A DNA stretch of 64,000 bases from Patescibacteria group bacterium UBA2773 (GCA_002352465.1 DEIN01000003.1:88933-152932), one strand, 5' to 3'; positions 7,408 to 28,066 are shown, counted from the first letter of the stretch. The notes: generated by a model from the sequence alone, not told the origin. A program made the numbers and translations.

Positions 7408-7480
7408 TCCCGGGTAGCTCAGTGGTAGAGCAATTGACTGTTAATCAATCGGTCGTCGGTTCGAATCCGACCCCGGGAGC
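7408..7480 (+). tRNA. tRNA-Asn (anticodon GTT)
   Basis: Acceptor TCCCGGG/CCCGGGA, discriminator G. D-arm GCTC-AGTGGTAGAGC. Anticodon loop CTGTTAA. T-arm GTCGG-TTCGAAT-CCGAC. Confidence 0.85.
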
Positions 7481-13137: not shown

Positions 13138-15879
13138 TTAAGAAAATATTTCAGAAACTTTTTCTACTCTTCGAAAATCAACCCCCTCTAATTCTCTGAA
13201 ATGAGCCTTCCCACAATCAATCTTATTTTGTTCACTTTCTCTAATTTCTCCAGGAGATTTAGTTTCCGCCACAAAGTAAACCTTTTCGTCATTCTCCAAA
13301 ACAATTGCCCAATCAGGATTATAATTACCAATCGGCGTTTTAATTTTAAACCACCCAGGAAGTTTAAAATAAAATTTAACTCTATCTATTGATTCAAGTT
13401 CTTTAGCAAACTCTGACTCTACCGCAGAATCAATCAAAACGTGGTCATAAAGAGTTTTATCTTGATTTTGAACCTTAACTACATTCTCTAAATAGCTCTC
13501 CAGCTCATTGCCTTTAAATAGCTCCATAGCGTAATAATTATTCTTGCCTTGAAGTCTCTCATATTTAATTCCATCGACAATCAATTTTTGCAAAGCCGAC
13601 CGAATCGAATCAACTGCTAAATCCATAAACTGCTGAGGATTTTTGGCAATCTCCATATCCTTGCCCGATTTTTTAATAATCTCAACTATTGTTTGTCTAG
13701 TTAATTTAGTTTTAGCTTGAATGTATCCCAAGATGTTAGGAATTGCTTTAAAATCATTTTCATACTCAACTTTTTTCTCGCTAATATTAGCCAAACCCGT
13801 CACTATTCCTTTTTTTGTAATATCTAATTTTCCTTTCAAACTAATAATTTTAGGCTCTCTAATTTCAGCATTGGCTAAAAATTCGCTAGATTCCTTTATC
13901 AAGTCTTCATTGCTAAAATTTACCTGGTATTTAGTTTTGTATTTAATTTTGTTCCAAAGCTCTTTAAAATCTTCATTTAATTTGTAGGCTTTAGTTAATT
14001 TAATTTTAGTCCTGTCTCTTTTTCTTTTTACTCTTTCACTAAAATCAACCCCACATTCATCTTCAATTTCAATTTGCAATTTTTTAGCAAATTCTTCATA
14101 ACTTTCATTAGCAATAACTGTCAAAACATTGATATTCTCATCAAACACCCTTTGCCCTTCTTGATTGACAGAAAGTCTCATTCCCCGACCAATTTCTTGA
14201 CGTTTTTTAATTTCACTTTGAGACCGACTAAGCGTGCAAATTTGAAAAACATTAGGGTTATCCCAGCCCTCTCTAAGAGCTGAGTGAGAAAAAATAAATT
14301 GCAAGGGCTCCTTGGTTGATAAAAGTCTTTCTTTATCTTTCATTATTAAACTATAAGTATCATCATCAGCCTTGCTGTTGCCTTTAGTATCTCGCCAATT
14401 TCCTTTTTTGTCTTGAGAAAAATATCCATTATGGATTTTTTCTACTTCATAAGGAATTAAATCAGTGAAGACTGGATTTTGTTTCAATTCTTCAAAAATC
14501 TCTTCAAACCACACGGCAATTTTTCCTTTTTTAATTAAGTCATTTTCATAACTTCGATAATTAGCTACTTTATCAATAAAGAATAATGACAAAACTTTTA
14601 TTCCTTTGTCTTTGAATTTTCTTGCTTTTTCAAAATGATTTAGAATAGTCTGGCGAATTTGAAATTTCATTATTTCATCGTTTAGCCCACCAATCGATTG
14701 ACCAACATAAATCATTTTACCATTAGAAAATGCAATTGATTGACCAATGACATCCGCCGAATCAACAACATAGCCCTTATAAACGCCTCTTTCTCCTGAA
14801 AGTTTGAACAGATTACATTCGCTTGCTCCTTTTGAAGATTTTCTAACTGTAATTATTTTTCGTTTAATTCCGTTATTGTCGCTTACGTCAATTTTGAGCT
14901 TAATGGCAATACTATTTTTTTGAGATTGAACTGATTCTAATTCAATAAACGGTTCATTTAAATTATTTTCTTCCAAAACTGAATCCACCTCAATTTTTTT
15001 AACCAAATTCAAATCATAAGCTCTAACAGGGTCTAGTCTATAAATTAAGTTATATGGATTTTTATGAGTTGCCGAATATCTCAAAGTAAAAAGCGGATTT
15101 AAATTCTCAATAGCTTTTTTTCTAATCGGAGTTTCCATATTTTGAGGTTCATCTATAATCACAATTGGACTAATATTTTTAATGTATTCAATCGGCACAC
15201 CCCAATCACTTTTCTGATAAATAATATTACCTTTTCTTTTCTCCTCGCTAAATTTAGCAAAAGAATCAATATTGATTACTAAAATTTGAAGACTATTGGC
15301 GGTTGCAAAATTTTTCAACAAACCTCTTTTTTTTGGGTCGTAAACGTGAAAATCCATTTCAGGATTATCATAAATAGTATCAAAATGCTCTTTGGTGATT
15401 TGAAGATTTTTAATCACACCCTCCTTAATGGCAATTGAAGGCACCACGATAATAAACTTTTTAAAGCCATATTTATTATGAAGTTCGTGAATTGTTCTGA
15501 GATAAACATAGGTTTTTCCTGTTCCAGTTTCCATTTCAAGAGAAAAATTCATTCCTTCGGCTAATTTCTGATGGCTTGCTCCCGCACCTATCATTTCAGT
15601 CCCAATCGCACCGACACCAATTCCACCGCCACTTTTTATTCCAGATTTATTCAATTTATTTTCCTCCTGAATATTATGAAGATTTTTAATTATCTCCTCT
15701 TGGCTAATCACCAAATTATTTCCAACTACAAAACCACTTTCAAGCAATTGTTGCCCTGTTTGTTTTTTAATTTCAATTTCAAAATCGCCTTTATTCAAAG
15801 GTTGCCCCTCAAAAAGACTAACTGTCGAATTTATGGCATCTAATTGGTATTTTTGGTTTGAATCAAATTGTAATTTCAT
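13138..15879 (-). CDS. res: Type III restriction enzyme Res subunit (SF2 helicase plus C-terminal PD-(D/E)xK nuclease)
   Basis: 913 aa. Helicase motif I 'ETGTGKTYVY', motif II 'IIDEPQN', and C-terminal 'NPDW…FVAETK' nuclease motif. Confidence 0.7.
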   Translation of the reverse strand: MKLQFDSNQKYQLDAINSTVSLFEGQPLNKGDFEIEIKKQTGQQLLESGFVVGNNLVISQEEIIKNLHNIQEENKLNKSGIKSGGGIGVGAIGTEMIGAGASHQKLAEGMNFSLEMETGTGKTYVYLRTIHELHNKYGFKKFIIVVPSIAIKEGVIKNLQITKEHFDTIYDNPEMDFHVYDPKKRGLLKNFATANSLQILVINIDSFAKFSEEKRKGNIIYQKSDWGVPIEYIKNISPIVIIDEPQNMETPIRKKAIENLNPLFTLRYSATHKNPYNLIYRLDPVRAYDLNLVKKIEVDSVLEENNLNEPFIELESVQSQKNSIAIKLKIDVSDNNGIKRKIITVRKSSKGASECNLFKLSGERGVYKGYVVDSADVIGQSIAFSNGKMIYVGQSIGGLNDEIMKFQIRQTILNHFEKARKFKDKGIKVLSLFFIDKVANYRSYENDLIKKGKIAVWFEEIFEELKQNPVFTDLIPYEVEKIHNGYFSQDKKGNWRDTKGNSKADDDTYSLIMKDKERLLSTKEPLQFIFSHSALREGWDNPNVFQICTLSRSQSEIKKRQEIGRGMRLSVNQEGQRVFDENINVLTVIANESYEEFAKKLQIEIEDECGVDFSERVKRKRDRTKIKLTKAYKLNEDFKELWNKIKYKTKYQVNFSNEDLIKESSEFLANAEIREPKIISLKGKLDITKKGIVTGLANISEKKVEYENDFKAIPNILGYIQAKTKLTRQTIVEIIKKSGKDMEIAKNPQQFMDLAVDSIRSALQKLIVDGIKYERLQGKNNYYAMELFKGNELESYLENVVKVQNQDKTLYDHVLIDSAVESEFAKELESIDRVKFYFKLPGWFKIKTPIGNYNPDWAIVLENDEKVYFVAETKSPGEIRESEQNKIDCGKAHFRELEGVDFRRVEKVSEIFS

Positions 15880-17992
15880 AATTTATGATTTCTTTAACTA
15901 ATGTTATAAGATATTCAAATTCATCCTTTTTTTTCTTTTTATTTTCGTCCTCTAGATAGTCTCTAATTTTTTTTAGAAAATTCAAAGCTCCCTCCTTATC
16001 GTGGCTAACATTTCCGCAATAAACTTCCAAACTTCCAGCTTCAAGTATGAATATTGGACAATTTATTTTTTTTATCTCTACTCCTTTCTTAAGTTCACTT
16101 AAAACATCTTCGAGATTATTTAAATTAAATTTTTTGTATTCTTTCATAAAATCGATTTCATCTAAAATTTTCTTATTATCCAAACTATTGTTAATCCAAA
16201 ATTTCAAAAATTTTTCATCCTTTTCGATAATTTTATTATTTTTTTGTAAACCATAAATTATTTTCAATATCCTAAGCCCGACATCTTTCTGAGTTAATTT
16301 TCTTTTTATAGACTTACTCTTAAAATAAGGTTCCAATAATTCCAAACTATTATTTTTCGTTAATTTTGTAATATTATCTTTTATCGGATTTAATAAAGTG
16401 ACTCCTTTCAATAAGCTACCCTCCCAAATATTATCCAAATCAGCAATAACAAAAGAATTAATTTTGAATTTATCTAAAAATTCTATATACTTTAAAAAAT
16501 TATTTTTTCCGTTAACTGATACGACCTCTATGCTCTTGTCTCCTTTATTGAATTTATCCAGCAAATAGCCAAAAATTATTTCGTCTGTCATACCCTCAAC
16601 AAGAATAATGTTATCTGCGAAAAAAAGCTTAGCACTATTTGAATAAGTAATTATATCAATTAAATCCTTTTGTTCCCCCAAAGAATTATTCCAACCAGAA
16701 TTTCTATTTTCTGGAATTAATTTCGTGAAACCATTCGATTTATAAATTCTAGTTATATTTTGAATCGTTTCTGAGCTTACAAAAAATGGCGAGTGCGTCA
16801 CTACCACAAATTGTAAATTTCGAATATTCGATACTTCATCATATAAACGAATCAACTTTGATTGCCATCTTGGATGCAGATGTATTTCAGGTTCATCGAT
16901 GATTAAAACTGCGTCTTTCAAGTCGAATGCTTCAATGGAAAAAATAAAATTAAAAATTTCTTTCTCTCCAGAACTCAATTTATTAAACTCAACTTGCCTT
17001 CCATCAGTCTCTATTATAAATTTAAACTTGTTATCATCTGCATTAGTCACTTCAACTTTAAAATCATAATTACCAACCAAATGCAATAGTTCTTTAACTC
17101 TTTTGACTTGCCCTATATCAGAAAACTTTTTTTTAACTGGCTTTCCTTTCTCTGTCAATAATTGATTCTCAGTTTTTAAGTCGTTAGATAATTTCGAAAA
17201 ATAATAAGTAAAATAATCAACGTCAGAAGAGGTTTTGTTTGATGTTTTTTCTTTTGATTGCCTAATTTTATCTGTTTTATTTTGTCCTGGCAAAGAAATT
17301 TCGAAACTTTGACCTTCGTGAAATCTATTTGGTGAAAAAAATTTCCAATTATATTTTAATTCTGAAATTTGATTGGTATTTCGAAATTTTTCATTATGCT
17401 TTTCTATTAGATACTTTATTTTTTCAAAATAATTTAAATATCTAAAAAATAATTTTTTATTATCAGAAAAACTATTATAACAATCGTCCGCTGTCTTAAC
17501 GTTGAGTAAGTGCTGAGAAAAACTAAATACTTGCTTAACTTCATTTTTCAATAAGTTGACATCTACCCTGGAAAACAAATCATTGAATGTTGTATAAATT
17601 TCGTTGCTTCCATTTCCAGAAAGCTCCCCTTCTATTTCAGATATTTTATCAAGATTGTTTTTAATAATTTTAATATTTTGTAAATCATTTTCACTAAATT
17701 CTAATTCAATTTCTAACTCTTGATTTACGTCATCTTTAATATTATCGTGTCTCGACAAATCAAAAAAATTATTGAGTTCTTTTCTTAAAAATAAAGTTTT
17801 AAAAGGCTCTTTATGCTCATTCCAATGCCAAATAAAAAAAGTATTCAAAGAAATATTTAAAATATCCATTAAATTACTTTTTCCTCCTCCATTCGGACCA
17901 ATCAAAATATTAGTCCCTTTTTTATTAAAAGAAATTTTAATCTTTTCTCCAATGCTTTTTATGTTTTGTATACTAATTGAATTTATTATCAT
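15863..17992 (-). CDS. OLD-family ABC-ATPase fused to a Toprim nuclease domain (GajA/AriAB-like)
   Basis: 709 aa. Walker A 'GPNGGGKSN', ABC signature 'LSSGEKE', Walker B 'LIIDEPEIHLHP', Toprim 'ILVEGMTDEIIF' plus DxD 'IADLDN'. Overlaps Res by 17 nt and starts 2 nt after Mod. Confidence 0.7.
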   Translation of the reverse strand: MIINSISIQNIKSIGEKIKISFNKKGTNILIGPNGGGKSNLMDILNISLNTFFIWHWNEHKEPFKTLFLRKELNNFFDLSRHDNIKDDVNQELEIELEFSENDLQNIKIIKNNLDKISEIEGELSGNGSNEIYTTFNDLFSRVDVNLLKNEVKQVFSFSQHLLNVKTADDCYNSFSDNKKLFFRYLNYFEKIKYLIEKHNEKFRNTNQISELKYNWKFFSPNRFHEGQSFEISLPGQNKTDKIRQSKEKTSNKTSSDVDYFTYYFSKLSNDLKTENQLLTEKGKPVKKKFSDIGQVKRVKELLHLVGNYDFKVEVTNADDNKFKFIIETDGRQVEFNKLSSGEKEIFNFIFSIEAFDLKDAVLIIDEPEIHLHPRWQSKLIRLYDEVSNIRNLQFVVVTHSPFFVSSETIQNITRIYKSNGFTKLIPENRNSGWNNSLGEQKDLIDIITYSNSAKLFFADNIILVEGMTDEIIFGYLLDKFNKGDKSIEVVSVNGKNNFLKYIEFLDKFKINSFVIADLDNIWEGSLLKGVTLLNPIKDNITKLTKNNSLELLEPYFKSKSIKRKLTQKDVGLRILKIIYGLQKNNKIIEKDEKFLKFWINNSLDNKKILDEIDFMKEYKKFNLNNLEDVLSELKKGVEIKKINCPIFILEAGSLEVYCGNVSHDKEGALNFLKKIRDYLEDENKKKKKDEFEYLITLVKEIINYEITI

Positions 17993-17994
17993 CT

Positions 17995-19884
17995 TTATAT
18001 TACCTTAAAATCAATATCTTCCTGTTCGGCTTGAAGTAAAATATTGGCTTTCAGTTCGTCATTATTTTGAAAAGCTCTTTCTAGACAAATTATTTTTTCT
18101 GGTTTTAAATTTTGAAAAAATTCACCCATTTCTTTAGAAATTTTATCGCCCAAATAAATAATCAATTTGCCATCACCCAAATTATAATATTTTTCCTTGC
18201 CCGAAGTAGCTTCAGCGGAGACTGGTCCTTTAAAATCTTTTTCCTGAATCAGAATATCCAAATCTAAACCACTTTTTAAAATAAGTTCATACAAAATATT
18301 TTTCTGAGTGCTTCCTGTTTCAAGATTATCAATAAAATCATCCAACGCTGAAAATAAATTCTTTCCGTCTTTGAATTTTCCTTGCCAAATCTTGAAATTA
18401 GATTTATCTAATTTAAAAGTTTTGAATCCTAAATCGACTTTATTTTCAGTCTCTTCTTTTATTTTTTTGCTTGCTCTTCTAATTCGTTCCTTGGCAATTT
18501 CAGCAATATTTTTATAGCCCGCCTTAAATGCTTCACTTTTTTCATTACATTTTTCTGGCAATTGAACACAAATCCATTTCCTATTTCCATTATCTTCAGC
18601 ATTTTGTTCCATTACTGCTTGAGCAGTCGGTCCTGAGCCAGCAAAAAAATCTAAAATTATATCTTCTTTGTTAGTAGAAAGAAATATTATCTTTTTTATC
18701 AATCTAACAGGTTTTGGGGTATCAAATGTTGCCACATCTTCAAAAAGTTTCTTCAATTCTTGTTTTGCTTCTTGATTATGTCCGACCTCTTTGTGCTTCC
18801 AAATAGTAGTACTAACTATTCCATCACTATTTTCAGATAAGAAAGTCTTAATTCTTGGCATATTACCACCGCTTTTTCCAAACCAAATTCTATTGTCTCT
18901 AACTAAATCATTAAATTTATTTAAAGACATAGACCAACTTCTTCCTTTGGGAGGAAGAGCCTCTCTGCCATTTGGCGTTTTTATTGGATAAATATCTTTT
19001 GGTGTAACTCTTTTTACTGTTAAGTCGCTAGATGCCCAAGAACCTCTTGAATCATTATCTGGATTAGAATATCTTTTATTGTTCTCATCAGTTCTTGGCA
19101 ATAAGTTTGGTTTCCAATTTTCCTTGTTTTTACAATAAAGTAAAACATAATCGTGATTATCAGATAAATACTTAGCATCATTTTGAGGAGAAAATTTCTT
19201 CTCCCAAATTATTTGTGCTACAAAATTCTCCTCACCAAAAATTTCGTTCATAATCATTCTTAAATTATGAACTTCGTTATCATCAATCGAAACAAAAATC
19301 ACTCCATCTTGCTTCAATAAATTTCTAGCCAAAAATAACCTTGGATACATCATATTAAGCCAATCGCTATGAAAATGTCCGTTACTGTCTTTTCTGTTAG
19401 CTGAAAGTCCGTCTGCTCTTGTCAAATCACCATTTTCATCCAATTCTCCGCTATCTTCCAATTCTTCTTTTCTGGTTTTTCTAAAATTATCATTATAAAT
19501 AAAATCATTTCCCGTGTTATAAGGCGGGTCAATATAAATACATTTGATTTTTCCATAATAAGAACGCTGTAAAACTTTTAGAACTTCCAAATTATCACCT
19601 TCGATAAAAGCATTGCCAGTTTTATCAAAATCAACGGATTCTTCCTCATTGGATTTTAATGTTGCTGTTGTTCCTTTTTGAATTTCTTCAAAACAACTAC
19701 TTTTTCCAGCCCAAGAAAGCCCGTAATGTTCATTGGCTAATTGATAATCTTCTCCCAAGGCTAATTTTAATTTTTCTGGGTCAATCTTTCCATCCGAAAA
19801 AACACTGGGAAAATTAACCTTCAATGCCTCGGCTAATTCTTTTTGAGAGATATAAGACCCTCCTTTTATTTTATGATTTTTCAT
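17995..19884 (-). CDS. mod: Type III (beta-class) DNA N6-adenine/N4-cytosine methyltransferase Mod subunit
   Basis: 629 aa. Motif IV 'IYIDPPYN' precedes motif I 'FFAGSGPTAQA' (beta-class order), with a TRD-sized insert between them. Confidence 0.75.
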   Translation of the reverse strand: MKNHKIKGGSYISQKELAEALKVNFPSVFSDGKIDPEKLKLALGEDYQLANEHYGLSWAGKSSCFEEIQKGTTATLKSNEEESVDFDKTGNAFIEGDNLEVLKVLQRSYYGKIKCIYIDPPYNTGNDFIYNDNFRKTRKEELEDSGELDENGDLTRADGLSANRKDSNGHFHSDWLNMMYPRLFLARNLLKQDGVIFVSIDDNEVHNLRMIMNEIFGEENFVAQIIWEKKFSPQNDAKYLSDNHDYVLLYCKNKENWKPNLLPRTDENNKRYSNPDNDSRGSWASSDLTVKRVTPKDIYPIKTPNGREALPPKGRSWSMSLNKFNDLVRDNRIWFGKSGGNMPRIKTFLSENSDGIVSTTIWKHKEVGHNQEAKQELKKLFEDVATFDTPKPVRLIKKIIFLSTNKEDIILDFFAGSGPTAQAVMEQNAEDNGNRKWICVQLPEKCNEKSEAFKAGYKNIAEIAKERIRRASKKIKEETENKVDLGFKTFKLDKSNFKIWQGKFKDGKNLFSALDDFIDNLETGSTQKNILYELILKSGLDLDILIQEKDFKGPVSAEATSGKEKYYNLGDGKLIIYLGDKISKEMGEFFQNLKPEKIICLERAFQNNDELKANILLQAEQEDIDFKVI

Positions 19885-19980: not shown

Positions 19981-21588
19981 TTATATTTTATCATTTACAA
20001 TTTTAATTGCTGTTGGTGGCTTTAAATAAAATGGCTCGCCAGCAATCTTTACAATCCCAATTTTTTCTTTTATTTCGCCAAGAACCAAACAAGGAATGTT
20101 AGTGCAACCCGCTTCTTTGTAGAAATAATAAGTATAATAGTCATCACTCATAATAAATTTTTTTCCTTTTTGATATACAGTTAATTCTGAATAATTTTTA
20201 TTTTTAAAATTTTCGGTAAAATATTTTTTTAAACTTTCATCGACAACTGGCTTATAATCGGTAAAAGGCTTTATAAATTCGCTCTTTATTAAGGCTCTCC
20301 TGCAAGTCAGCTCTTTCTTGTAGCAAGCACTCAAAAGCCTAATCAATTCTTCATCTTTTCTCTCATTGCTTTCTCCAAAATCACTTTTTATCTTAGAAAT
20401 ATCAATTTTACTAGGAATTTTATTTTTGTTATTCAGTAATTTCTTTGCTTCATTGATAATTTCATTAGGTGTAAAATGACAGCTAACCCAATAATCATCT
20501 GCTCCTAATTTAAGAGCTTTTTCAATACAATCCTTCTCTCCCATATTGCTATAAACAGCTATCCGAATATTGTTAAAATTCTTATTTTGACGAACTTTCT
20601 CAATGAACTCAATGCCGTCCATTTCTGGCATTACTATTTCAGTTATTATTAAATCAGGATTATAACTTTTGATTTCTTCAATCACATTTTTACCTGGATG
20701 AGAAAACTGCTTAATTTGAAAACTATTTTCTAAAAATTTTTTCTTAAATATCTCTCTAAGCATTGGGTCATTTTCAAACTGCATTATTTTAAAATTGTTT
20801 TTCCCTGTTTTTCTAAATTTTTCTATTTGAAAATTATCCAATTTATTTGTTAATTCAGCTCTTTTTCCTGCTTTTATAGCTTTCTCGGGAGTGTCAAAAA
20901 AAACATTACTCTTTCTTGAATCAAATAAATCAGCTTTACTAATATCTAAAAAATCTTTTCTTAATTTACTTGGCATTTTTTCTAAAACTTTGTATTCTTT
21001 TGAGATTTTTTCAGAAAATTCTTTATTTTTAGCCGTTGGCAAGACTGCCCCGTTTTTATCCCTATCAATTTTTTTCTCTAGACTTGAGACAAGATTTTCT
21101 CCTTTTGACTCTATTTCTTTTTTAGTTGAGTTTTTTTTATTATTTTTTTTGTATTTATTTATCAAAAGAAGAATCCCCACAGTTAGCAAAACATAAGTCA
21201 TTGATTTTAAATGAGCTTGAATTATTAAATCTCTTTCTTTAACGCACCATCCCAAGCCACCTCTTTTAACAATTCCAATACGAACCAAGTCTTGCACACT
21301 ATTTATTGAATAATAACAATAAGTTTTTCCACTAAAGCTATAATAATTAGAAGGAATCTTGATATTAAAAAAAATCAAATAAACGGCAAGTATCAAAATC
21401 AATTCTTGCCAATGGTTCTTGATAAAATTTTTAAACCAAATTTGTTGATTAAAAAATTTTACTAAATTTTCAAAAAAACTTTTTGTTTTATTCATAGCGA
21501 TATCAAACCGCTTAACGCAATAATCAAAAACAAGTAAAGTCAAAATTAAACCACTAATTACAGTAATCGCCAATAATATTTTGCTCAT
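19981..21588 (-). CDS. Membrane-anchored protein with a central response-regulator receiver domain and an unassigned C-terminal domain
   Basis: 535 aa. Three N-terminal TM segments, a receiver-like block 'LIITEIVMPEMDGIEF…IAVYS…LGADDY', and a ~150-aa C-terminus of unknown fold. Confidence 0.45.
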   Translation of the reverse strand: MSKILLAITVISGLILTLLVFDYCVKRFDIAMNKTKSFFENLVKFFNQQIWFKNFIKNHWQELILILAVYLIFFNIKIPSNYYSFSGKTYCYYSINSVQDLVRIGIVKRGGLGWCVKERDLIIQAHLKSMTYVLLTVGILLLINKYKKNNKKNSTKKEIESKGENLVSSLEKKIDRDKNGAVLPTAKNKEFSEKISKEYKVLEKMPSKLRKDFLDISKADLFDSRKSNVFFDTPEKAIKAGKRAELTNKLDNFQIEKFRKTGKNNFKIMQFENDPMLREIFKKKFLENSFQIKQFSHPGKNVIEEIKSYNPDLIITEIVMPEMDGIEFIEKVRQNKNFNNIRIAVYSNMGEKDCIEKALKLGADDYWVSCHFTPNEIINEAKKLLNNKNKIPSKIDISKIKSDFGESNERKDEELIRLLSACYKKELTCRRALIKSEFIKPFTDYKPVVDESLKKYFTENFKNKNYSELTVYQKGKKFIMSDDYYTYYFYKEAGCTNIPCLVLGEIKEKIGIVKIAGEPFYLKPPTAIKIVNDKI

Positions 21589-22012: not shown

Positions 22013-22989
22013 ATTTGTTTGTTAGTTATTTTTATATCTTCAAAGGTCTTATAAAATCTCGGTAAGTCCTCTTTAAGTTTAAGATTATCGTCATACACGA
22101 TTAACATCTCAAGACTTTTATGTCTTGAATATTTCTTAACATTTAACAAATCACCTTTATAGCTTCTGATTAGCTGACTAACAAAAAAATGTCTCGTGCC
22201 GTGAGTTGATTTATCAATACCTAATTCCCTGAAAAAGTCTTTGACTATTTTTCTTATTCCTCGCGTTGTAAGCCGTCCTGAGCGATGATTATTGCTTTGA
22301 CTAGTAAACAATGCTCCATCGGCGATTTTACTTGCTTTAAGATAAGTTTTGAGAGCCTGAGTAGTTTTAGGATGAAGATTGATTGCCTCTTTGTCGTCTG
22401 CTCCTTTTCCTTGAATAAAAGCTAGACTATTAACTAAATCCACATCTTTAATATCCAACCTAACTACCTCACATTGTCTCAAGCCCTGAAATAACAAAAA
22501 ACTCAAGATTACTTTCAATCTTAAGTTTTTTGGATTATCTTCTAATTGTTGTAGTTCTTTTGATAGTTTAGCCACTTCTTCCACATTCAAACCGCTTTTC
22601 TTATGTTTTCGACTCTGAGAGAAGACTTTGACATTTTGAGTGATATTAACTGGAATAAGCCCTCGTCGATTCAATTCATTTAAAAAAATCTTTGCAGTGA
22701 TTAAATACTTGTTCTTAGAGGAAACAGCTAGGTTATTTCTTCCTTTTAGGTATCTTTTGAATTTTAAAAAAGTATTATGATTAAGTCCTTGGCTTTTGGT
22801 AAATTCTAGAAACAATCTAATTCTTGATTGATAATCTTTCTTTGTGGCATCAGAAATATCTAATAAATCAAAGACTTGTTTCGCCTTCCCTTTCTCTTTT
22901 AATAATATTACCAGTTCTCCGCTCATAAAATTTATTAGTTTTATTGCGGGAACACAAAACCCCGCATCAGCTAGGTCTTGCGACCCCAT
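22009..22989 (-). CDS. Tyrosine recombinase / phage-type integrase
   Basis: 326 aa. Conserved R ('LRQCEVVRLD'), HxxR ('HGTRHFF') and catalytic Y ('HKSLEMLIVY'). The annotated N-terminus (MGSQDLADAGF…) lies in a GC-rich stretch, so the true start may be the internal Met (MSGELV…). Confidence 0.8.
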   Translation of the reverse strand: MGSQDLADAGFCVPAIKLINFMSGELVILLKEKGKAKQVFDLLDISDATKKDYQSRIRLFLEFTKSQGLNHNTFLKFKRYLKGRNNLAVSSKNKYLITAKIFLNELNRRGLIPVNITQNVKVFSQSRKHKKSGLNVEEVAKLSKELQQLEDNPKNLRLKVILSFLLFQGLRQCEVVRLDIKDVDLVNSLAFIQGKGADDKEAINLHPKTTQALKTYLKASKIADGALFTSQSNNHRSGRLTTRGIRKIVKDFFRELGIDKSTHGTRHFFVSQLIRSYKGDLLNVKKYSRHKSLEMLIVYDDNLKLKEDLPRFYKTFEDIKITNKQI

Positions 22990-23130
22990 ATCCCTTTCGA
23001 GATATAGCTCAACGAAGAGTTGCTAAACACGGGGTTTAGTATCTTCGTTGAGTCTTTTTTGCCATACCTTTGAATAAAAATTCAAAGGGTTAGGCGATTA
23101 AATAAATTGTATACAAACTATGCCATATGT

Positions 23131-23667
23131 TTAAAGTAAACCCAAATAATCCAATCCAACATATCCTACTTCTACATCTGTATTTTTTCCACCTTTTAAT
23201 AACTCCCTAAATTCTGAAAGAGGCATCAAAACTACTTCGGCAAATTCAGTTTTATCTAAGTTTTGTTCCGCAACTTTTTCACAATCAGTTATTACGACAC
23301 AGTGCCGATTCATTGTAGAGTAAGCGCAATCATAGGCAGTGGTTATAAATTTTGCTTTTCCTTTATAACCAGTTTCTTCTAAAAGTTCTCTTTCAGCTGC
23401 TTGTTCGGGAGTTTCATCTTTATCAACATAGCCGCCAGGAAGTTCATCTAAAATTTCCTTAGGTCCAGGACGAAACTGTTTGACTAATATTACTTGCTGG
23501 TCTTTGGTGAGAGCAAGAATTCCAACAGCAGGGCCTTCCTTTTTGATATAAAAATCACTAACTTTTCCATCAGGCAATTTAAAGTCAACCTTCTCCATCT
23601 TCTTTCCATATTTACTGAAAACTTCTTCTCTTGAAATTTCCTCCCATTTTTGTATTTTATTTGACAT
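23131..23667 (-). CDS. NUDIX hydrolase (ADP-ribose / NDP-sugar pyrophosphatase-like)
   Basis: Nudix box 'GGYVDKDETPEQAAERELLEETGY'. Confidence 0.7.
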   Translation of the reverse strand: MSNKIQKWEEISREEVFSKYGKKMEKVDFKLPDGKVSDFYIKKEGPAVGILALTKDQQVILVKQFRPGPKEILDELPGGYVDKDETPEQAAERELLEETGYKGKAKFITTAYDCAYSTMNRHCVVITDCEKVAEQNLDKTEFAEVVLMPLSEFRELLKGGKNTDVEVGYVGLDYLGLL

Positions 23668-23720
23668 ACTATATTATCTTTAAAAATTATTTAATTTTAT
23701 TATATAATATCTTTAAATCC

Positions 23721-23763
23721 AGAAAAAGTAAATGCCCTAGATTCAGTTAAATCTAGGGCATTT
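23721..23763 (-). terminator. Rho-independent terminator downstream of the IMPase-family gene
   Basis: aaatgccctagat-tcagttaa-atctagggcattt hairpin, followed on the minus strand by a U-rich tract. Confidence 0.5.
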
Positions 23764-23787
23764 TATGTTCCACCTCCTTTTTTAATT

Positions 23788-24612
23788 TCATTGAAGTTTC
23801 CTTAAAAGTTCATCATGACTACAAAAGCCATTAGTCGCAAGCCAACCATCCTTATGGATAATCTTCCGCTTACTAAATGGCATTGGTGAGCCATCCAACG
23901 AAGTCATTTTACCTCCAAACTCCTCAAGAAGTAAAATGGCCGCGGCATAGTCCCATATATTTGCAGACTTACCATCTTGGGGAAAATACATCCCAGCTTC
24001 AACTCTTTCCAAGAGAATAGAGACGATTTTGATAGTCAATGTAGAAACAGGAATGGGTTTTAATCCACTTTTTTTAATCCGAGTCTTAAATTCAGAAATT
24101 TGAATCTGCCTCGGACTAACCGCGATTTTATTTTTATTCCCAATCGGTTCCTTTGCAACCAACTCTTTCCCATTGCAAATCACGCCTGTTCCTCTGCAAG
24201 CCGAAAATCTCAAATTGTCCTGTGGCATAAGAAGCATACCGACTTGAGAACTAAGATTGTTAACAGCAGAAAGAGAAATTGACCATTCATGACTTCCTCT
24301 GGAAAATTCTGATGTTCCGTCAATTGGGTCAATAATAAACACCCAGCCCTCATGAGGAATAATATCTCCTTTATTGTAATGCTCTTCAGCAAGAACAGGA
24401 ATTTTTGGAAAGAACGAGGAGAGAAATCTGATGCAAATTTCCTCTACTTCCCTGTCAACTTCAGTGACTATTTCCTTGCTTCCATTGGCACCTGTCTTGA
24501 AAAACGCAGTCGCCATTATTTGACGTTCAAAGCTGAAATATGTCTCTAAAACATTAGCCAAAGCATGAAATGCTTCCAAAATTCTTTTTTCCATTTCCAT
24601 ATCACCTCCCAA
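23788..24612 (-). CDS. Inositol monophosphatase family phosphatase (SuhB/CysQ-like)
   Basis: 'WVFIIDPIDGTSEF' IMPase metal-binding motif and 'WD' motif near the C-terminus. Confidence 0.8.
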   Translation of the reverse strand: MGGDMEMEKRILEAFHALANVLETYFSFERQIMATAFFKTGANGSKEIVTEVDREVEEICIRFLSSFFPKIPVLAEEHYNKGDIIPHEGWVFIIDPIDGTSEFSRGSHEWSISLSAVNNLSSQVGMLLMPQDNLRFSACRGTGVICNGKELVAKEPIGNKNKIAVSPRQIQISEFKTRIKKSGLKPIPVSTLTIKIVSILLERVEAGMYFPQDGKSANIWDYAAAILLLEEFGGKMTSLDGSPMPFSKRKIIHKDGWLATNGFCSHDELLRKLQ

Positions 24613-25729
24613 AAATGAACAGTGATTCGTTTATAATTTTGCAGGTTTCCAACAATCCAAGTTCTCTTGGATTTGAAGGAATATTACTACTCTGCAATGC
24701 TTCCAAGGCAATTCTTTTCACAGACAGATTACCAAACAAAGAAAGATTGTTGGAAATTTCCTCCGCCATCCCTGACTCCTCAATGATTGAACGAATCCAT
24801 GAAAGCAATCCATCACCAGAAGGAAGGCCCATAACTTTTTCCGCCTCATAAAATGAAGCTTCGCAATCTGCCAAATTGAATTTCATTGAGGCCTCAAGAA
24901 ATGTTACTACCGCCAATCCGTGATGCATCCCTGTAAACGCTCCAAGTGGATGAGACAAAGCATGAGCAATACTCAAACCAGTTCTTGGATAAAGCAACCG
25001 TGCCGTAAAAGCAATAGATTGCAATTTTTCTAATGCAGAGATGTCTTTTTTCACCAAAGCATCTTCCAGTGGTTCACGAACAGAACAGAGAAGCCCTTTA
25101 CTCACAATCCTAGTCAAAGCTGTTGCCTTTCTAGATATGTGAGATTCTAAAATATGGGTGAATGCATCCATTCCAGTTGCGGCAATCATAACTTTATCAA
25201 GAGAAATCAATGACTGAGGGTCAAGAATAACAGCAGTAGGCATAAAGAAAATACTTTCTATGCCTCTTTTTTTAGGAATATTAGGGTCCATAATAACAGC
25301 AAACGGACTGCTTTCTGCTCCTGTTCCACATGTCGTCGGAATAGCCACAAGAGGCACCGATTGAATTTTTGCTTTTTTATCACGAAAATAATCTTCGGCC
25401 ACCCCACCATTGATAGCTGTTAAACCGATAATCTTTGCCAAATCAATAGCACTTCCTCCGCCAACAGCGATAATGGAGTCATATTTTTCTTTACGAAGAA
25501 GACAGGCTCCATTATTAACCTGCAAAAAAGTTGGATTTGTTCCAAAATCATCAAACGATTCTCCAAAAAAATCCTCAAAAATTCTTCCAAAGTTTGATTG
25601 TCTGACCTTTGGGTCTATAACCAAAAAAGGTCGCTTGAGATTCATCTCTGTCAAAAGTTCAGACAAACAGCTAACACTGCCATTGCCCGAAATCAATTTT
25701 TTCGGAGTTGCCATATTCCAGTTTATCAT
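24602..25729 (-). CDS. Iron-containing (group III) alcohol dehydrogenase family oxidoreductase
   Basis: 'GGGSAIDLAK' NAD-binding motif, and 'GMDAFTHILESH' and 'AHALSHPLG…HHG' metal-ligand motifs. Confidence 0.75.
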   Translation of the reverse strand: MINWNMATPKKLISGNGSVSCLSELLTEMNLKRPFLVIDPKVRQSNFGRIFEDFFGESFDDFGTNPTFLQVNNGACLLRKEKYDSIIAVGGGSAIDLAKIIGLTAINGGVAEDYFRDKKAKIQSVPLVAIPTTCGTGAESSPFAVIMDPNIPKKRGIESIFFMPTAVILDPQSLISLDKVMIAATGMDAFTHILESHISRKATALTRIVSKGLLCSVREPLEDALVKKDISALEKLQSIAFTARLLYPRTGLSIAHALSHPLGAFTGMHHGLAVVTFLEASMKFNLADCEASFYEAEKVMGLPSGDGLLSWIRSIIEESGMAEEISNNLSLFGNLSVKRIALEALQSSNIPSNPRELGLLETCKIINESLFIFGR

Positions 25730-27135
25730 CTTTCACCTCCATCAATTTTCTTAATGATTTCTTTCGTTGCTTCGGCAATTGCCAGGGCTTTTTCCTTGTT
25801 ACTGGACTCTGCATATATACGCAGAAGTTCTTCTGTTCCAGCAGCACGAATATTAACCCAATCTCCCGACTCAAAAAAAAGTTTCAATCCATCAACCTCT
25901 CTTATTTTTGAGACCACTTGACCAGCAAGTTTTTCTGGAACTTCTCTCTTGAGTTTTTTCATAACAACTGCTGGAGAAATGAGAGACTTTAAATTAAGTC
26001 TTGAAAATCCAGATTTTCCCGCTATTTTCTCTACCTCTTTGAGAATTCCACTGATTCCCCCTTTATAAATTATTTCAGCCTCAGAAAGCAAAATAGCCGC
26101 AAGAGTAGCATCTCTTTCTGGCAGATAAAAACCAAATCCTATTCCGCCATTCTCCTCGCCAGCAATGAGAACTTTCTCGTTTCTCATTATTTCACATGCA
26201 TTCCTAAAACCAATTGGGGTTTCTCTGTAAACAAATCCCAAATAATTTGCCAGATAAGACAAACGCTTGCTCATCGTTACACTTCCGATAACAATTCCAG
26301 TTTGTTTTCGCATTTTTGCCAAATACCACAACAAAACCACTGTCACATCATTCGGAGACAAATATCCTATCTCTGGAATAACCGCCATAATTCTGTCACC
26401 ATCTCCATCATGCGCGATTCCCAAATCACACTTTCCGCCTGATATGACCCCTTGGAGTTTTTGAGTGTTGCTTTCCATTGGTTCCGGAGCAATTCCGCCA
26501 AAGTATGGGTCAAAGTCAGTATGTATTTCTAACACCTCAGCCTTACTCCCCCGAAGCACTCCTTTAAGAATGCCTTTTGTTGTTCCATGCATGGTATCAA
26601 CAGCGATTTTCAAAGGACGACCATTAAATACTTCCCAATCAATTATTGTCCTTAATTTTTGACAATAACCATTAAAGGGGTCGTCTTTTTTCAAGTCACT
26701 GTTTTCACAAATAACTCTATTTGTTCGAGAATTCATCAGATTTTGAATATCCAGAGTGAATTCTTCGCTTGGCGCACCACCATAACCCATACGAACCTTT
26801 ATGCCATTATAATCATAAGGATTATGAGACGCGGTTATGGTAATACCACAAATCATTGCTTTCTGGTTTGTTCTAAATGAAACCATCGGCGTAGGAATAG
26901 GCTTTGAGCTGATAAAAACATTGAGTCCAAATTGACTCAATACCTGACCAGCTTGCTTAGCAAATTCAAAACTAAGAAAACGAGTGTCATAACCGACAAA
27001 TGTTTCCGTTCCGCCATGTCTTAAAATATAACTGGAAATAGCCGTAGCAACTCTTCCAACAAAATCAAATGTGAAAGAATCTGCTATTTTCCCTCTCCAA
27101 CCATCAGACGTAGAACGAAGACTAATCTTGTCCAT
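25726..27135 (-). CDS. Phosphoglucomutase/phosphomannomutase family protein
   Basis: Active-site 'TASHNP' and metal-binding 'HDGDGDR'. Confidence 0.85.
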   Translation of the reverse strand: MDKISLRSTSDGWRGKIADSFTFDFVGRVATAISSYILRHGGTETFVGYDTRFLSFEFAKQAGQVLSQFGLNVFISSKPIPTPMVSFRTNQKAMICGITITASHNPYDYNGIKVRMGYGGAPSEEFTLDIQNLMNSRTNRVICENSDLKKDDPFNGYCQKLRTIIDWEVFNGRPLKIAVDTMHGTTKGILKGVLRGSKAEVLEIHTDFDPYFGGIAPEPMESNTQKLQGVISGGKCDLGIAHDGDGDRIMAVIPEIGYLSPNDVTVVLLWYLAKMRKQTGIVIGSVTMSKRLSYLANYLGFVYRETPIGFRNACEIMRNEKVLIAGEENGGIGFGFYLPERDATLAAILLSEAEIIYKGGISGILKEVEKIAGKSGFSRLNLKSLISPAVVMKKLKREVPEKLAGQVVSKIREVDGLKLFFESGDWVNIRAAGTEELLRIYAESSNKEKALAIAEATKEIIKKIDGGER

Positions 27136-27898
27136 TTTTATTTCCTCCTTTAATCAGTTCGCCATAGATTGTTTTCAGAATCCACGAATTGTTTTTAAGA
27201 ATTTCGTATCTAGAAGGAATTCCGTAATCCAAAAAAAATCCAAGCCCATTATTGACTGCACCAACCATTTTTGACAATACCAAAGCTGGCAATATGTCCC
27301 TCTCAAGCGACGAAATACCAGAAGGAAATATTGATAGAACTGACGAGCATTTCAGAAAATAACACCCAGTGCTACTTCCCCGAAAGTGACTACCGCCATC
27401 AATTGGCTCCTTTGTCGCTTCACCTTCGCAAAACTCGGTTACAATTCCATCTTCGACAAAGACCGCTCCTTGGTTAGGAACTTCTTTGTTTAAAGTCAGC
27501 ATAGCCGTCACTGGCATATCCAAAACTTTGTGAATTTCATACAAACGAAAAAAATCCAGGGACACTACAGTGTCGCCATTGCAAAGAAAGACATTTTCAT
27601 TGGAACAATTTTGGCAAGCAAATCTTGTTGCTCCACCTGTTCCAAGTGGACTATCTTCTTTAACAATTTTTACACCTCTGGAGCTCCAAAAATTTGTTGC
27701 AAAAACAGACTCAATCTGATTGCTTAATTTTCCAGTTGAAATGATAATTTCATTTAATCCTAGGCCAATAAACCAACTAACCAAATACTGAAGAAATGGA
27801 TAGTCAGCAAATTGAAGCATCGATTTTGGCGTTCTTAGGCAAACTTCACCCATTCTTGTCGCCAAACCACCAGCAAGAATTACAGCTGTTATTTTCAT
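27122..27898 (-). CDS. Sugar-phosphate nucleotidyltransferase (NTP-transferase domain)
   Basis: N-terminal 'AVILAGGLATRMG…PK' nucleotide-binding signature. 258 aa. Confidence 0.75.
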   Translation of the reverse strand: MKITAVILAGGLATRMGEVCLRTPKSMLQFADYPFLQYLVSWFIGLGLNEIIISTGKLSNQIESVFATNFWSSRGVKIVKEDSPLGTGGATRFACQNCSNENVFLCNGDTVVSLDFFRLYEIHKVLDMPVTAMLTLNKEVPNQGAVFVEDGIVTEFCEGEATKEPIDGGSHFRGSSTGCYFLKCSSVLSIFPSGISSLERDILPALVLSKMVGAVNNGLGFFLDYGIPSRYEILKNNSWILKTIYGELIKGGNKNGQD

Positions 27899-28066
27899 TT
27901 TCCCTTCCTCCTTTGTATCTAATTTGGATTATGCAGAAAAATCCTATTTTAAAAAATCTATTAACTTGTCAAAGAACATTAAAGACTACCTCAATTTGAC
28001 ATAGAAGTCAATTAGATGTATTAAATATTTGGATTTTTTCCCTTTTAAGGATTGTGAACAAACTGC

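Follow-up and report, generated by a model that had tools for sequence, protein, structure and literature searches.

On the minus strand of a 64,000-nucleotide stretch of Patescibacteria group bacterium UBA2773 (GCA_002352465.1, DEIN01000003.1:88933-152932; hereafter the window, meaning the whole stretch analysed) lies a cassette of five genes. In order of transcription, these encode a nucleoside triphosphate (NTP) transferase, a phosphohexomutase, a type III iron-dependent alcohol dehydrogenase (Fe-ADH), a phosphatase of the inositol monophosphatase (IMPase) superfamily and a NUDIX hydrolase (Table 1). These domain assignments, made in an initial annotation, were borne out by Pfam, and catalytic motifs are intact in five of the five proteins. 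The cassette appears to be a mobile, nucleotide-sugar-type biosynthetic unit with an unusual set of enzymes, all members of well-known superfamilies and none of them assignable to a characterised subfamily.

Table 1. Genes and expression signals of the cassette, in window coordinates.
Feature	Position	Strand	Description and basis
Cassette of five open reading frames (ORFs)	23131-27898	minus	ORF listing and Pfam
NTP-transferase ORF, NTP_transferase/NTP_transf_3	27122-27898	minus	258 aa; Pfam; variable cassette member
Phosphohexomutase ORF, alpha-D-phosphohexomutase family, PGM_PMM I-IV	25726-27135	minus	469 aa; Pfam
Type III Fe-ADH ORF, Fe-ADH and ADH_Fe_C	24602-25729	minus	375 aa; Pfam
IMPase-superfamily phosphatase, Inositol_P	23788-24600 from ATG; mechanical ORF from TTG 24612	minus	270 aa from ATG
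NUDIX hydrolase, ADP-ribose / NDP-sugar pyrophosphatase type	23131-23667	minus	178 aa; own transcription unit
Cassette promoter	27983-28011	minus	-35 TTGACT (28011-28006), 17-nt spacer, -10 TAGTCT (27988-27983)
Intrinsic terminator hairpin closing the four-gene operon	23730-23763	minus	15-bp stem and T-tract; terminator scan
Promoter-like site for the NUDIX gene	23704-23732	minus	TTTACT-17-TATTAT; promoter scan

The unit consists of a four-gene operon under one conserved promoter and of a separately promoted NUDIX gene behind a conserved terminator, as the initial annotation had supposed. Of the three gene overlaps it listed, those of 14 nt (NTP-transferase/mutase) and 4 nt (mutase/ADH) are genuine, whereas the third, of 11 nt between ADH and phosphatase, arises from a TTG start that was chosen mechanically. 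A Shine-Dalgarno sequence, GGAGGTGA, lies within the 3' end of the ADH gene, and the phosphatase ATG is found at 24600, one base past the ADH stop codon; other gene callers give a phosphatase of 268-270 residues. Even without the 11-nt overlap, the cassette genes are tightly packed. The operon promoter is followed by a leader of about 85 nt and an AGGAGG ribosome-binding site. Its -35 box, spacer and -10 box are kept in eight loci (the -10 box mostly as TAATCT in homologues), as are the operon terminator hairpin, with compensatory changes in the stem, and the -10 region of the NUDIX promoter, GGTATTATA. A search of the operon leader for a riboswitch or other structured element gave no Rfam match and no RNAalifold consensus structure. 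At the foot of the hairpin, between the phosphatase and NUDIX genes, a conserved AGGAGG followed by an ATG was also noted (window 23764-23790, minus strand, and homologues). This ATG begins a two-codon mini-ORF (ATG CCC TGA/TAG) in most loci, L003 and L089 being the exceptions.

None of the five proteins (0/5) reaches the cut-off of an NCBIfam equivalog, in keeping with the earlier impression that this is not a textbook operon. Judged by their sequences, the folds of the five proteins are certain, and their substrates are not fixed by any equivalog match. The NTP-transferase matches PF00483 (40 bits, gathering cut-off 21) and PF12804 (45 bits, gathering cut-off 27), and its best NCBIfam scores are to man1P_GTase (97 bits, cut-off 440) and HddC (66.9 bits, cut-off 300). 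Its best match in the Protein Data Bank (PDB) is Yersinia HddC (6jq8/5xhw), and GDP-mannose pyrophosphorylases (GMPP) are also among the nearest solved relatives. The protein features the motifs LAGGxATRM (here LAGGLATRM), PK, CNGDT and SSTGCY, with LAGGLATRM, PK, GD and D224 conserved in 19 homologues. The mutase has four PGM_PMM domains, with phosphoserine loop TASHNP and metal loop DGDGDR intact. In this superfamily, specificity as phosphoglucomutase/phosphomannomutase (PGM/PMM) or GlmM is defined by the canonical sugar-binding loop GEESGG/GEMSGH and phosphate-binding loop RxSGTEP. The corresponding loops of the cassette enzyme, GEENGG and RAAGTEE, are variants that are invariant throughout the cassette family. 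NCBIfam scores are 246 bits to Arch_GlmM (cut-off 439) and 125 to PMM/PGM (cut-off 618), and the best PDB match is a putative PMM of T. thermophilus (1tuo, 210 bits), archaeal PGM/PMM enzymes coming next.

The ADH matches PF00465 (133 bits) and PF25137 (67 bits), and its translation contains GGGSAID (the GGGS NAD motif), DAFTH, HALSH and HHG, with the Asp/His/His/His ligands present. It could not be assigned to a characterised subfamily (FucO, DhaT, Mdh, EutG, 4HbD, KdnB, G1PDH and others were considered): the top NCBIfam models, ErcA (175 bits, cut-off 550) and FucO (154 bits, cut-off 523), are roughly equidistant from it, as are others including 4-hydroxybutyrate dehydrogenase. Its best PDB match is an NAD-methanol dehydrogenase (8zrl, 135 bits), with FucO and DhaT also near, and similarity to glycerol-1-phosphate and glycerol dehydrogenases is weak (34-40 bits). 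The phosphatase matches PF00459 (Inositol_P, 132 bits) with motifs IIDPIDGT and IWDYAAA in the translation, scores below every functional subfamily cut-off (CysQ 88 against 229, HisN 75 against 275, FBPase/IMPase 59 against 264, SuhB 46 against 332), and has T. maritima IMPase/FBPase (2p3n) as its best PDB match. The NUDIX protein has a domain score of 70 bits and a perfect Nudix box, GGYVDKDETPEQAAERELLEETGY (consensus GX5EX7REUXEEXGU); it scores 52 bits to NudE (below cut-off) and 17.6 to NudK, and no Gmm model matched. Its residues 7-167 align full-length, N-terminal strand-swap domain included, to a Bdellovibrio hydrolase of nucleoside diphosphate (NDP)-sugars (5c7q) and to the ADP-ribose pyrophosphatase (ADPRase) ACT (8zr8). 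The SPG motif of ACT is absent at the aligned position, where the protein resembles the Bdellovibrio enzyme. All five proteins are under purifying selection, with dN/dS of 0.04-0.15 across the five genes, except for the NTP-transferase compared with loci L103 (0.22) and L005 (0.52), in which this gene has been replaced.

The same five genes in the same order, which the initial annotation had proposed searching for, were found at several other loci. Gene order was compared in L003/L004, L005/L006/L102, L094/L095/L100, L096, L097 and L103, and a metagenome scan with a mutase alignment gave eight relevant loci. The proteins are 72-86% identical to those of the window, the flanks are unrelated, and the hosts range from 31 to 49% GC. 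By blastn, the stretch shared with other loci begins at about 28011, with the -35 box, and goes no further than the NUDIX stop codon at 23131. The AcrB and DUF4012 proteins in the flank of L003 share only 26% and 39% identity with their window counterparts, compared with 72-80% for the cassette proteins. In L096 the cassette comes after rpsB, tsf and four tRNA genes, and in L103 after ftsA/ftsZ. The L094 cassette is on another island, adjoined by a tRNA gene, a large serine recombinase gene and an ABC-three-component (ABC-3C) system; islands of this tRNA and large serine recombinase type were found at two copies, those of the window and of L094. In L003, the cassette lies between two 1188-bp copies of an insertion sequence (IS) that are 100% identical, in a composite-transposon-like arrangement. 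Across loci, GC content at third codon positions (GC3) is 0.26-0.40 in the cassette and 0.26-0.64 in the flanks; cassette GC3 exceeds that of the surrounding genes in the window and in L094, and is much lower than theirs in L096, L103 and L090. Because the five-gene order is shared in unrelated flanks, GC3 departs from that of the flanks in either direction, IS elements enclose one copy and others lie in tRNA/recombinase islands, the cassette very probably moves horizontally as one unit, within and beyond the Candidate Phyla Radiation (CPR, or Patescibacteria). The lateral acquisition suggested initially is thereby upheld. Among close relatives, the window copy has the lowest GC3, which is what drift toward the composition of an AT-rich host would produce. 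Moreover, transfer across large distances is indicated because the window ADH is closer to that of a deltaproteobacterial metagenome-assembled genome (MAG; 58% identity) than to the resident CPR version (44%).

Base composition had first drawn attention to the region. Windowed GC and codon usage, whose calculation the initial annotation had recommended, both set the cassette apart. At 38.2% GC, against 31.4% elsewhere in the window, it exceeds every other 4.8-kb window (non-overlapping windows average 31.5%, with an sd of 1.5 and a maximum of 34.8). The reported elevation is thus real, at a value in the high 30s rather than the low 40s. The excess lies mainly at codon positions 1 and 2 (GC2 0.377 against 0.284 and GC1 0.474 against 0.411, cassette genes against others), because the encoded enzymes are richer in Gly, Ala and Pro and poorer in Lys and Asn than their neighbours. 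GC3, at 0.295 against 0.265 (sd 0.034), is within about 1 sd of that of other genes. The GC signal seen by eye is therefore mostly protein composition, and for this reason the comparison between loci, rather than GC, is the strongest evidence for transfer. Synonymous codon usage of the cassette is nevertheless atypical for the window: its distance to non-island genes is 0.212, about 3.9 sd out from, and beyond every one of, 500 random gene sets of the same size (0.130 +/- 0.021, maximum 0.210). The corresponding distance for the other island genes is 0.133.

This compositional pattern bears on the simplest alternative, that the genes were inherited vertically and owe their higher GC to the proteins that they encode. 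The positions at which the GC excess falls and the near-ordinary GC3 would fit such an origin, as would relatedness. The nearest named relatives of the arginyl-tRNA synthetase (ArgRS) of the window are from Candidatus Moranbacteria (63%), followed by other Patescibacteria, and the closest named relatives of the cassette are from the same superphylum. The closest ArgRS relatives are 82% identical and the closest cassette relatives 81-86%, a near-identical cluster at 96% aside. The initial annotation had named closest homologues from the same lineage in identical synteny as the mark of vertical core genes. Moranbacteria relatives and synteny within the cassette were indeed observed, but the flanks differ in every genome examined. 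The discordance of GC3 in both directions, the IS-bracketed copy, the location of the window copy in a tRNA-gene island with recombinases, codon usage beyond 500 of 500 random gene sets, the mosaic NTP-transferase and NUDIX genes and the deltaproteobacterial affinity of the ADH all argue in the same sense. Vertical inheritance is largely refuted by these data, and we consider it highly improbable.

As to the vehicle of transfer, no relatives of the cassette were found in two scans of IMG/VR viral contigs, tblastn against a phage collection gave at most 29% identity, and tblastn against plasmids gave nothing close. An integron cassette is not indicated either: the tyrosine recombinase of the window scores 32 bits on integrase_gron (cut-off 265), no recombination site is shared at the boundary formed by the NUDIX stop codon, where an integron cassette would have one of the attC type, and the cassette has its own promoter. 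The contigs of L094 (14775-15290), L096 (9013-9332) and L097 (5201-5438) end 0.3-1 kb past the NUDIX gene, with tails that have short stretches in common, one of 71 nt at 80% and an inverted one of 194 nt at 75%. The tails also contain a palindrome of about 107 nt. These may represent a small repeat element at the 3' junction of the cassette.

The cassette is itself a mosaic. The NTP-transferase gene is swapped in L103 (9226-10005) and L005 (10001-10762), where its product is 56% and 42% identical, respectively, to that of the window, compared with 74-86% for the other four genes. Both loci keep the promoter and the four downstream genes beside the replaced gene. The first gene is thus exchangeable, in a cassette-like swapping of NTP-transferase alleles. 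The NUDIX gene also has a partly separate history, because its dS relative to L096 and L103 (2.0-3.8) is well above that of the operon genes (0.6-0.9). An in-frame fusion of NTP-transferase and IMPase in L089 (P0041) was considered as a functional link between the two enzymes. Since it has lost the mutase and ADH genes and ~78 residues from the start of the phosphatase, a remnant left by deletion is the better interpretation.

The NTP-transferase belongs to a small distinct subfamily of 47 clusters at E<1e-37, after which similarity drops to about 1e-26 for generic HddC-like proteins. Many of these distant relatives are fused to GmhB-type phosphatases. A scan of GTDB species representatives with an alignment of seven NTP-transferase sequences returned 80 loci, of which 78 were generic HddC-like, and the subfamily was found in only one Moraniibacteriota and one WWE3 genome. 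Outside the cassette, its genes occur with NUDIX and PhyH dioxygenase genes (L010, L093), with genes for PhyH, an MFS transporter and a transketolase (L091), or alone (L007). The L010 (5817-7703) and L093 (8001-10114) arrangements consist of the NTP-transferase, a NUDIX protein 53-57% identical to that of the window and a PhyH-type Fe/2-oxoglutarate dioxygenase, and are set in L093 between dnaN and polA. The NTP-transferase and NUDIX genes thus remain together in the absence of the mutase-ADH-phosphatase trio in L010, L093 and L089.

The trio itself is, by its distribution, the conserved core. The ADH subfamily reaches Desulfobulbia (49-58%) and many CPR bacteria (43-46%), and the trio always has an NTP-transferase nearby, including in Desulfobulbia and in a widespread CPR lineage. 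In the deltaproteobacterial MAG mentioned above and in Candidatus Electronema aureum (ADH 49%), the trio is followed by a gene for a protein of about 750 residues and then by a different NTP-transferase gene. In the widely sampled CPR lineage, from which the resident ADH version at 44% derives, the trio is followed by a NUDIX gene (61%), a divergent NTP-transferase gene is found on the opposite strand, and secA, tgt and prfA are nearby; L107 has this order, mutase-ADH-phosphatase-NUDIX, in a housekeeping neighbourhood. The ~750-residue protein (L105 11985-14243; L106 11982-14231), encoded between the IMPase-type and NTP-transferase genes, has no Pfam assignment and a weak AAA+ signal at residues ~480-560; its gene overlaps the IMPase-type gene by 4 nt in L105 and is separated from it by 8 nt in L106.

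We propose, with a probability of roughly 55%, that the cassette serves to produce and modify a nucleotide-activated sugar, or a compound resembling a sugar, in its CPR host and to regulate how much of it is present. The mutase would convert a sugar-6-phosphate (or terminal phosphate) to the sugar-1-phosphate, which the HddC/GMPP-like transferase would join to an NTP, probably GTP, to give an NDP-sugar. Redox tailoring by the Fe-ADH would take place at a primary alcohol or aldehyde, carried by the sugar, by its phosphate or by an acceptor. The IMPase-type enzyme would strip phosphate from a bisphosphate precursor or a phosphorylated product, in the manner of GmhB in NDP-heptose synthesis or of glycosyl-solute phosphatases. 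The NUDIX protein would split the NDP-sugar into nucleoside monophosphate (NMP) and sugar-1-phosphate, as a level control or recycling valve like Gmm/WcaH beside manB/manC, and might also clear ADP-ribose, an inhibitor of type III ADHs. The NDP-sugar would then probably be used by glycosyltransferases (GTs) of the GT4 type for a variable surface glycan. The roles assigned to the ADH and phosphatase are inferred only by analogy with GmhB and with the synthesis of Kdo8N and of FR-900098/fosfomycin.

A nucleotide-sugar supply line is proposed because the mutase and sugar-1-phosphate transferase always occur together, because a GT4 gene replaces the NUDIX gene directly downstream in L090, and because GT4 and GT2 genes, along with those for UDP-glucose dehydrogenase and DUF4012 proteins, are found 2-4 kb from the cassette in L003 and L005. 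The nearest solved relatives of three of the proteins, HddC/GMPP, PGM/PMM enzymes and an NDP-sugar hydrolase, provide the same link to sugar nucleotides. So do the HddC-GmhB fusions among distant relatives of the transferase, the constant company of an NTP-transferase near the trio, and the pairing of NTP-transferase with NUDIX where the trio is absent. The DUF4012 and GT4 genes of the window are consistent with a CPR envelope locus. Several observations nevertheless weigh against this proposal. With no NCBIfam equivalog match, sequence comparison establishes no substrate for any of the proteins, and the ADH resembles enzymes acting on small C1-C4 alcohols. Given the mutase, a separate phosphatase is formally not required. 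Glycosyltransferase genes are missing from inside most copies of the cassette, and the nearest GT4 genes of the window are about 20 kb away. The ~750-residue, weakly AAA+-like protein of Desulfobulbia is ill-suited to a simple sugar pathway. We know of no characterised NDP-sugar pathway that pairs a type III Fe-ADH with an IMPase-type phosphatase, and a literature search for such a pathway found none; a further search on the CDP-2-glycerol pathway as an analogue was uninformative.

The affinities of the individual enzymes could also be accommodated by a salvage or catabolic module. In such a module, the NUDIX protein would split scavenged NDP-sugars or ADP-ribose, the mutase would move phosphate from the 1- to the 6- or 5-position for glycolysis or a pentose route, the IMPase-type enzyme would act as a fructose bisphosphatase (FBPase) or nucleotide 2'/3'-phosphatase, and the Fe-ADH would regenerate NAD+ on a fermentation aldehyde. 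The host is a fermentative-type CPR bacterium, the ADH is nearest to small-alcohol dehydrogenases, the phosphatase to T. maritima IMPase/FBPase and CysQ, the NUDIX protein is ADPRase-like, and archaeal PGM/PMM enzymes and a phosphopentomutase are among the relatives of the mutase; moreover, the L107 version resides within a housekeeping neighbourhood. This scheme leaves the ever-present sugar-1-phosphate NTP-transferase unexplained, however, and the cassette brings along no aldolase, nucleoside phosphorylase or transporter, while translational coupling and co-transfer of the four genes favour a single pathway. We regard salvage as unlikely.

Mannitol, sorbitol and glycerol are classically made by reduction followed by dephosphorylation, and the last step of di-myo-inositol-phosphate synthesis falls to IMPase-family enzymes. 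A polyol or glycosyl-polyol route to a solute of the compatible-solute type would follow this logic: the ADH would reduce a sugar or triose phosphate to a polyol phosphate, the IMPase-type enzyme would dephosphorylate it or its glycosylated product, and the mutase and NTP-transferase would supply an NDP-hexose donor. The inositol- or mannose-derived compatible solute suggested initially is close to such a product, although no specific product found support. The ADH and phosphatase genes are indeed adjacent and coupled in every version, and L090 has a GT4 gene immediately downstream. Most cassettes, on the other hand, have no glycosyltransferase, an inositol-phosphate synthase is lacking, the similarity of the ADH to glycerol-1-phosphate and glycerol dehydrogenases is weak, and nothing connects the hosts with osmotic stress, so that a polyol product seems rather improbable.

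A further question is whether the NUDIX protein serves the ADH rather than an NDP-sugar. ADP-ribose is a sub-micromolar competitive inhibitor of type III ADHs, and the ADPRase ACT keeps ADH active by removing it (PMC12926040). A similar service here, as for the methanol dehydrogenase of Bacillus methanolicus, would concern one component of the cassette and be compatible with the nucleotide-sugar proposal. The closest solved relative of the ADH is 8zrl, the relatives of the NUDIX protein include ACT structures 8zr8, 8wv3 and 9jax, matched full-length, and ADH and NUDIX genes co-occur in the cassette and in the L107-type cluster. Against this, the same NUDIX subfamily (53-57%) is found beside NTP-transferase and PhyH genes with no ADH in L010 and L093, the ADH-bearing loci L090, L105 and L106 have no NUDIX gene, so that the two do not co-vary across genomes, and at the position of the SPG motif the protein is like the Bdellovibrio NDP-sugar hydrolase rather than ACT. 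Such a role is doubtful, though conceivable.

The genomic surroundings of the window copy raise the possibility of a function in conflict or defence. The cassette is part of an island that extends from tRNA-Asn (7408-7480) to about 34.4 kb. From the tRNA gene onward, the island encodes a large serine recombinase and a DUF2779 protein; Type III-like Res and Mod proteins, with an OLD-family ATPase-nuclease between them; a Shedu nuclease fused to a receiver domain; and a tyrosine recombinase (Phage_integrase). The cassette comes next, followed by a few small ORFs and the gene for a Type IIG restriction-modification (R-M) enzyme. The exact cassette proteins are also found, in identical context, on metagenome and NCBI contigs. 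The adjoining integrase noted initially was therefore recovered, but the phage remnants reported with it reduce to two small ORFs, one weakly like a terminase small subunit (E=2.7e-4) and one an FtsK/SpoIIIE fragment. The surroundings are better described as an integrative defence island than as a prophage remnant. An att-type direct repeat of tRNA-Asn that would delimit the island was sought, and only low-complexity repeats were found; the right border, at ~34.4-34.8 kb, is inferred from gene content only.

In this setting, the NTP-transferase and NUDIX proteins might be imagined to act against phages, either by an NTP-consuming cycle, in which NTP and sugar-1-phosphate yield NDP-sugar and PPi and the NDP-sugar is then split to NMP and sugar-1-phosphate, or by making a nucleotide-derived effector. 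Besides the Type III-like R-M system with OLD-family nuclease, the receiver-Shedu fusion and the Type IIG enzyme around the window copy, defence-type genes accompany L094 (ABC-3C and SLFN), L090 (caspase-helicase and AAA_15) and L003 (a GmrSD fragment and HEPN/MNT). No association in the family is more persistent than that of NTP-transferase with NUDIX, and the Desulfobulbia versions occur with the large AAA+-like protein. However, PADLOC gives no hit for four of the five proteins and only a weak one for the NUDIX protein (PDC-S07, 33.6 bits), the NUDIX gene is separately transcribed behind a terminator, and no sensor or effector domain is present. Other copies lie beside ftsZ, rpsB/tsf or secA, and defence islands are general sinks for mobile cargo. 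A defensive role is thus extremely improbable.

Three other features of the island were noted. The Type III-like restriction system (13138-19884, minus strand) has the gene for the OLD-family ATPase/TOPRIM nuclease (15863-17992) inserted between those for Res and the methylase; the Res helicase-endonuclease gene (13138-15879) overlaps the OLD gene, and the N6/N4 methylase gene (17995-19884) is 2 nt from it. The adjacent gene (19981-21588, minus strand) encodes a 535-residue protein with a response-regulator receiver domain, a C-terminal DUF4263/SduA (Shedu nuclease) domain and apparent N-terminal membrane segments, which may be a phosphorylation-gated Shedu variant. Finally, a full-length LOOT RNA (Rfam RF03000; 85 bits, gathering score 46) was identified at 22973-23096 on the minus strand. 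It is situated outside the cassette, in the interval from the NUDIX stop codon to the tyrosine recombinase gene, whose likely ATG follows ~47 nt downstream. The other cassette loci scanned do not have it, and the paper introducing the motif does not discuss LOOT in its main text.

CPR bacteria are abundant, uncultivated and metabolically minimal, and their accessory functions are poorly understood. Against this background, the locus represents a complete, promoter-bearing enzyme cassette moving between CPR genomes of very different base composition, with a related version in relatives of cable bacteria. If its product is a surface sugar, the cassette would change the envelope of an episymbiont, with consequences for host attachment and phage receptors. 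Should the chemistry prove new, nucleotide-sugar biochemistry would gain a further type of pathway, joint action of a type III ADH and an IMPase-fold phosphatase not having been described there. More speculatively, the trio and its HddC-like transferase could make an unusual activated sugar by a route not yet described, which a plug-in cassette would have carried through ultra-small CPR bacteria and Desulfobulbia. Such a route might lead to an NDP-heptose or NDP-polyol with no GmhA-, HddA- or GmhB-type enzymes, or be a nucleotide-handle pathway in which tailoring takes place on an NMP-bound intermediate that is released by the NUDIX protein and phosphatase, with exchangeable NTP-transferase alleles altering the surface glycan or metabolite. 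We offer this last idea as a tentative one. The locus overturns nothing, and presents a well-defined, testable orphan pathway of CPR bacteria.

Comparison with known systems shows partial likeness to several. In Bacillus methanolicus, a type III Fe-ADH (Mdh) and an ADPRase-type Nudix protein (ACT) are encoded together, as in the cassette, and are the top solved relatives of both proteins. Similarity is moderate (135 and 62 bits), however, the NUDIX and ADH genes each also occur without the other, and nothing suggests methanol metabolism. In the pathways of FR-900098 (FrbH/FrbI) and fosfomycin (Fom1/FomC/FomD), a nucleotidyltransferase loads NMP, an Fe-ADH and other enzymes perform tailoring, and a Nudix protein or other hydrolase removes the NMP. 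In Kdo8N synthesis (KdsC, KdnB, KdsB), a phosphatase frees a primary alcohol that the Fe-ADH KdnB oxidises before nucleotide activation. The logic proposed for the cassette resembles these routes, from which it differs by a phosphohexomutase in place of a PEP mutase, the absence of an aminotransferase and weak scores to KdnB (57 bits) and to the phosphonate Fe-ADH PsrA (Phn_Fe-ADH, 125 bits against a cut-off of 424).

The pathway to GDP-D-glycero-alpha-D-manno-heptose, formed by GmhA, HddA, GmhB and HddC, includes the best solved relative of the NTP-transferase, and in it, as here, a phosphatase adjoins the nucleotidyltransferase; the distant homologues in which HddC is fused to GmhB-type phosphatases extend the parallel. 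The cassette, in contrast, has neither the GmhA isomerase nor the HddA kinase but a PGM/PMM mutase and a type III Fe-ADH, its phosphatase is of the IMPase rather than the HAD fold, and its HddC score is 67 bits against 300. In the colanic acid cluster manB-manC-gmm (wcaH/nudD) of E. coli, a phosphomannomutase-type mutase, a GDP-mannose-pyrophosphorylase-like transferase and a Nudix enzyme hydrolysing an NDP-sugar are found together in a single polysaccharide-related locus. That cluster has no counterpart to the Fe-ADH and IMPase-type phosphatase of the cassette, which has neither gmd nor fcl and whose NUDIX protein is of the ADPRase/NDP-sugar pyrophosphatase type rather than Gmm, with no match to a Gmm model; nevertheless, a mutase, an NTP-transferase and a Nudix protein are likewise combined in the cassette.

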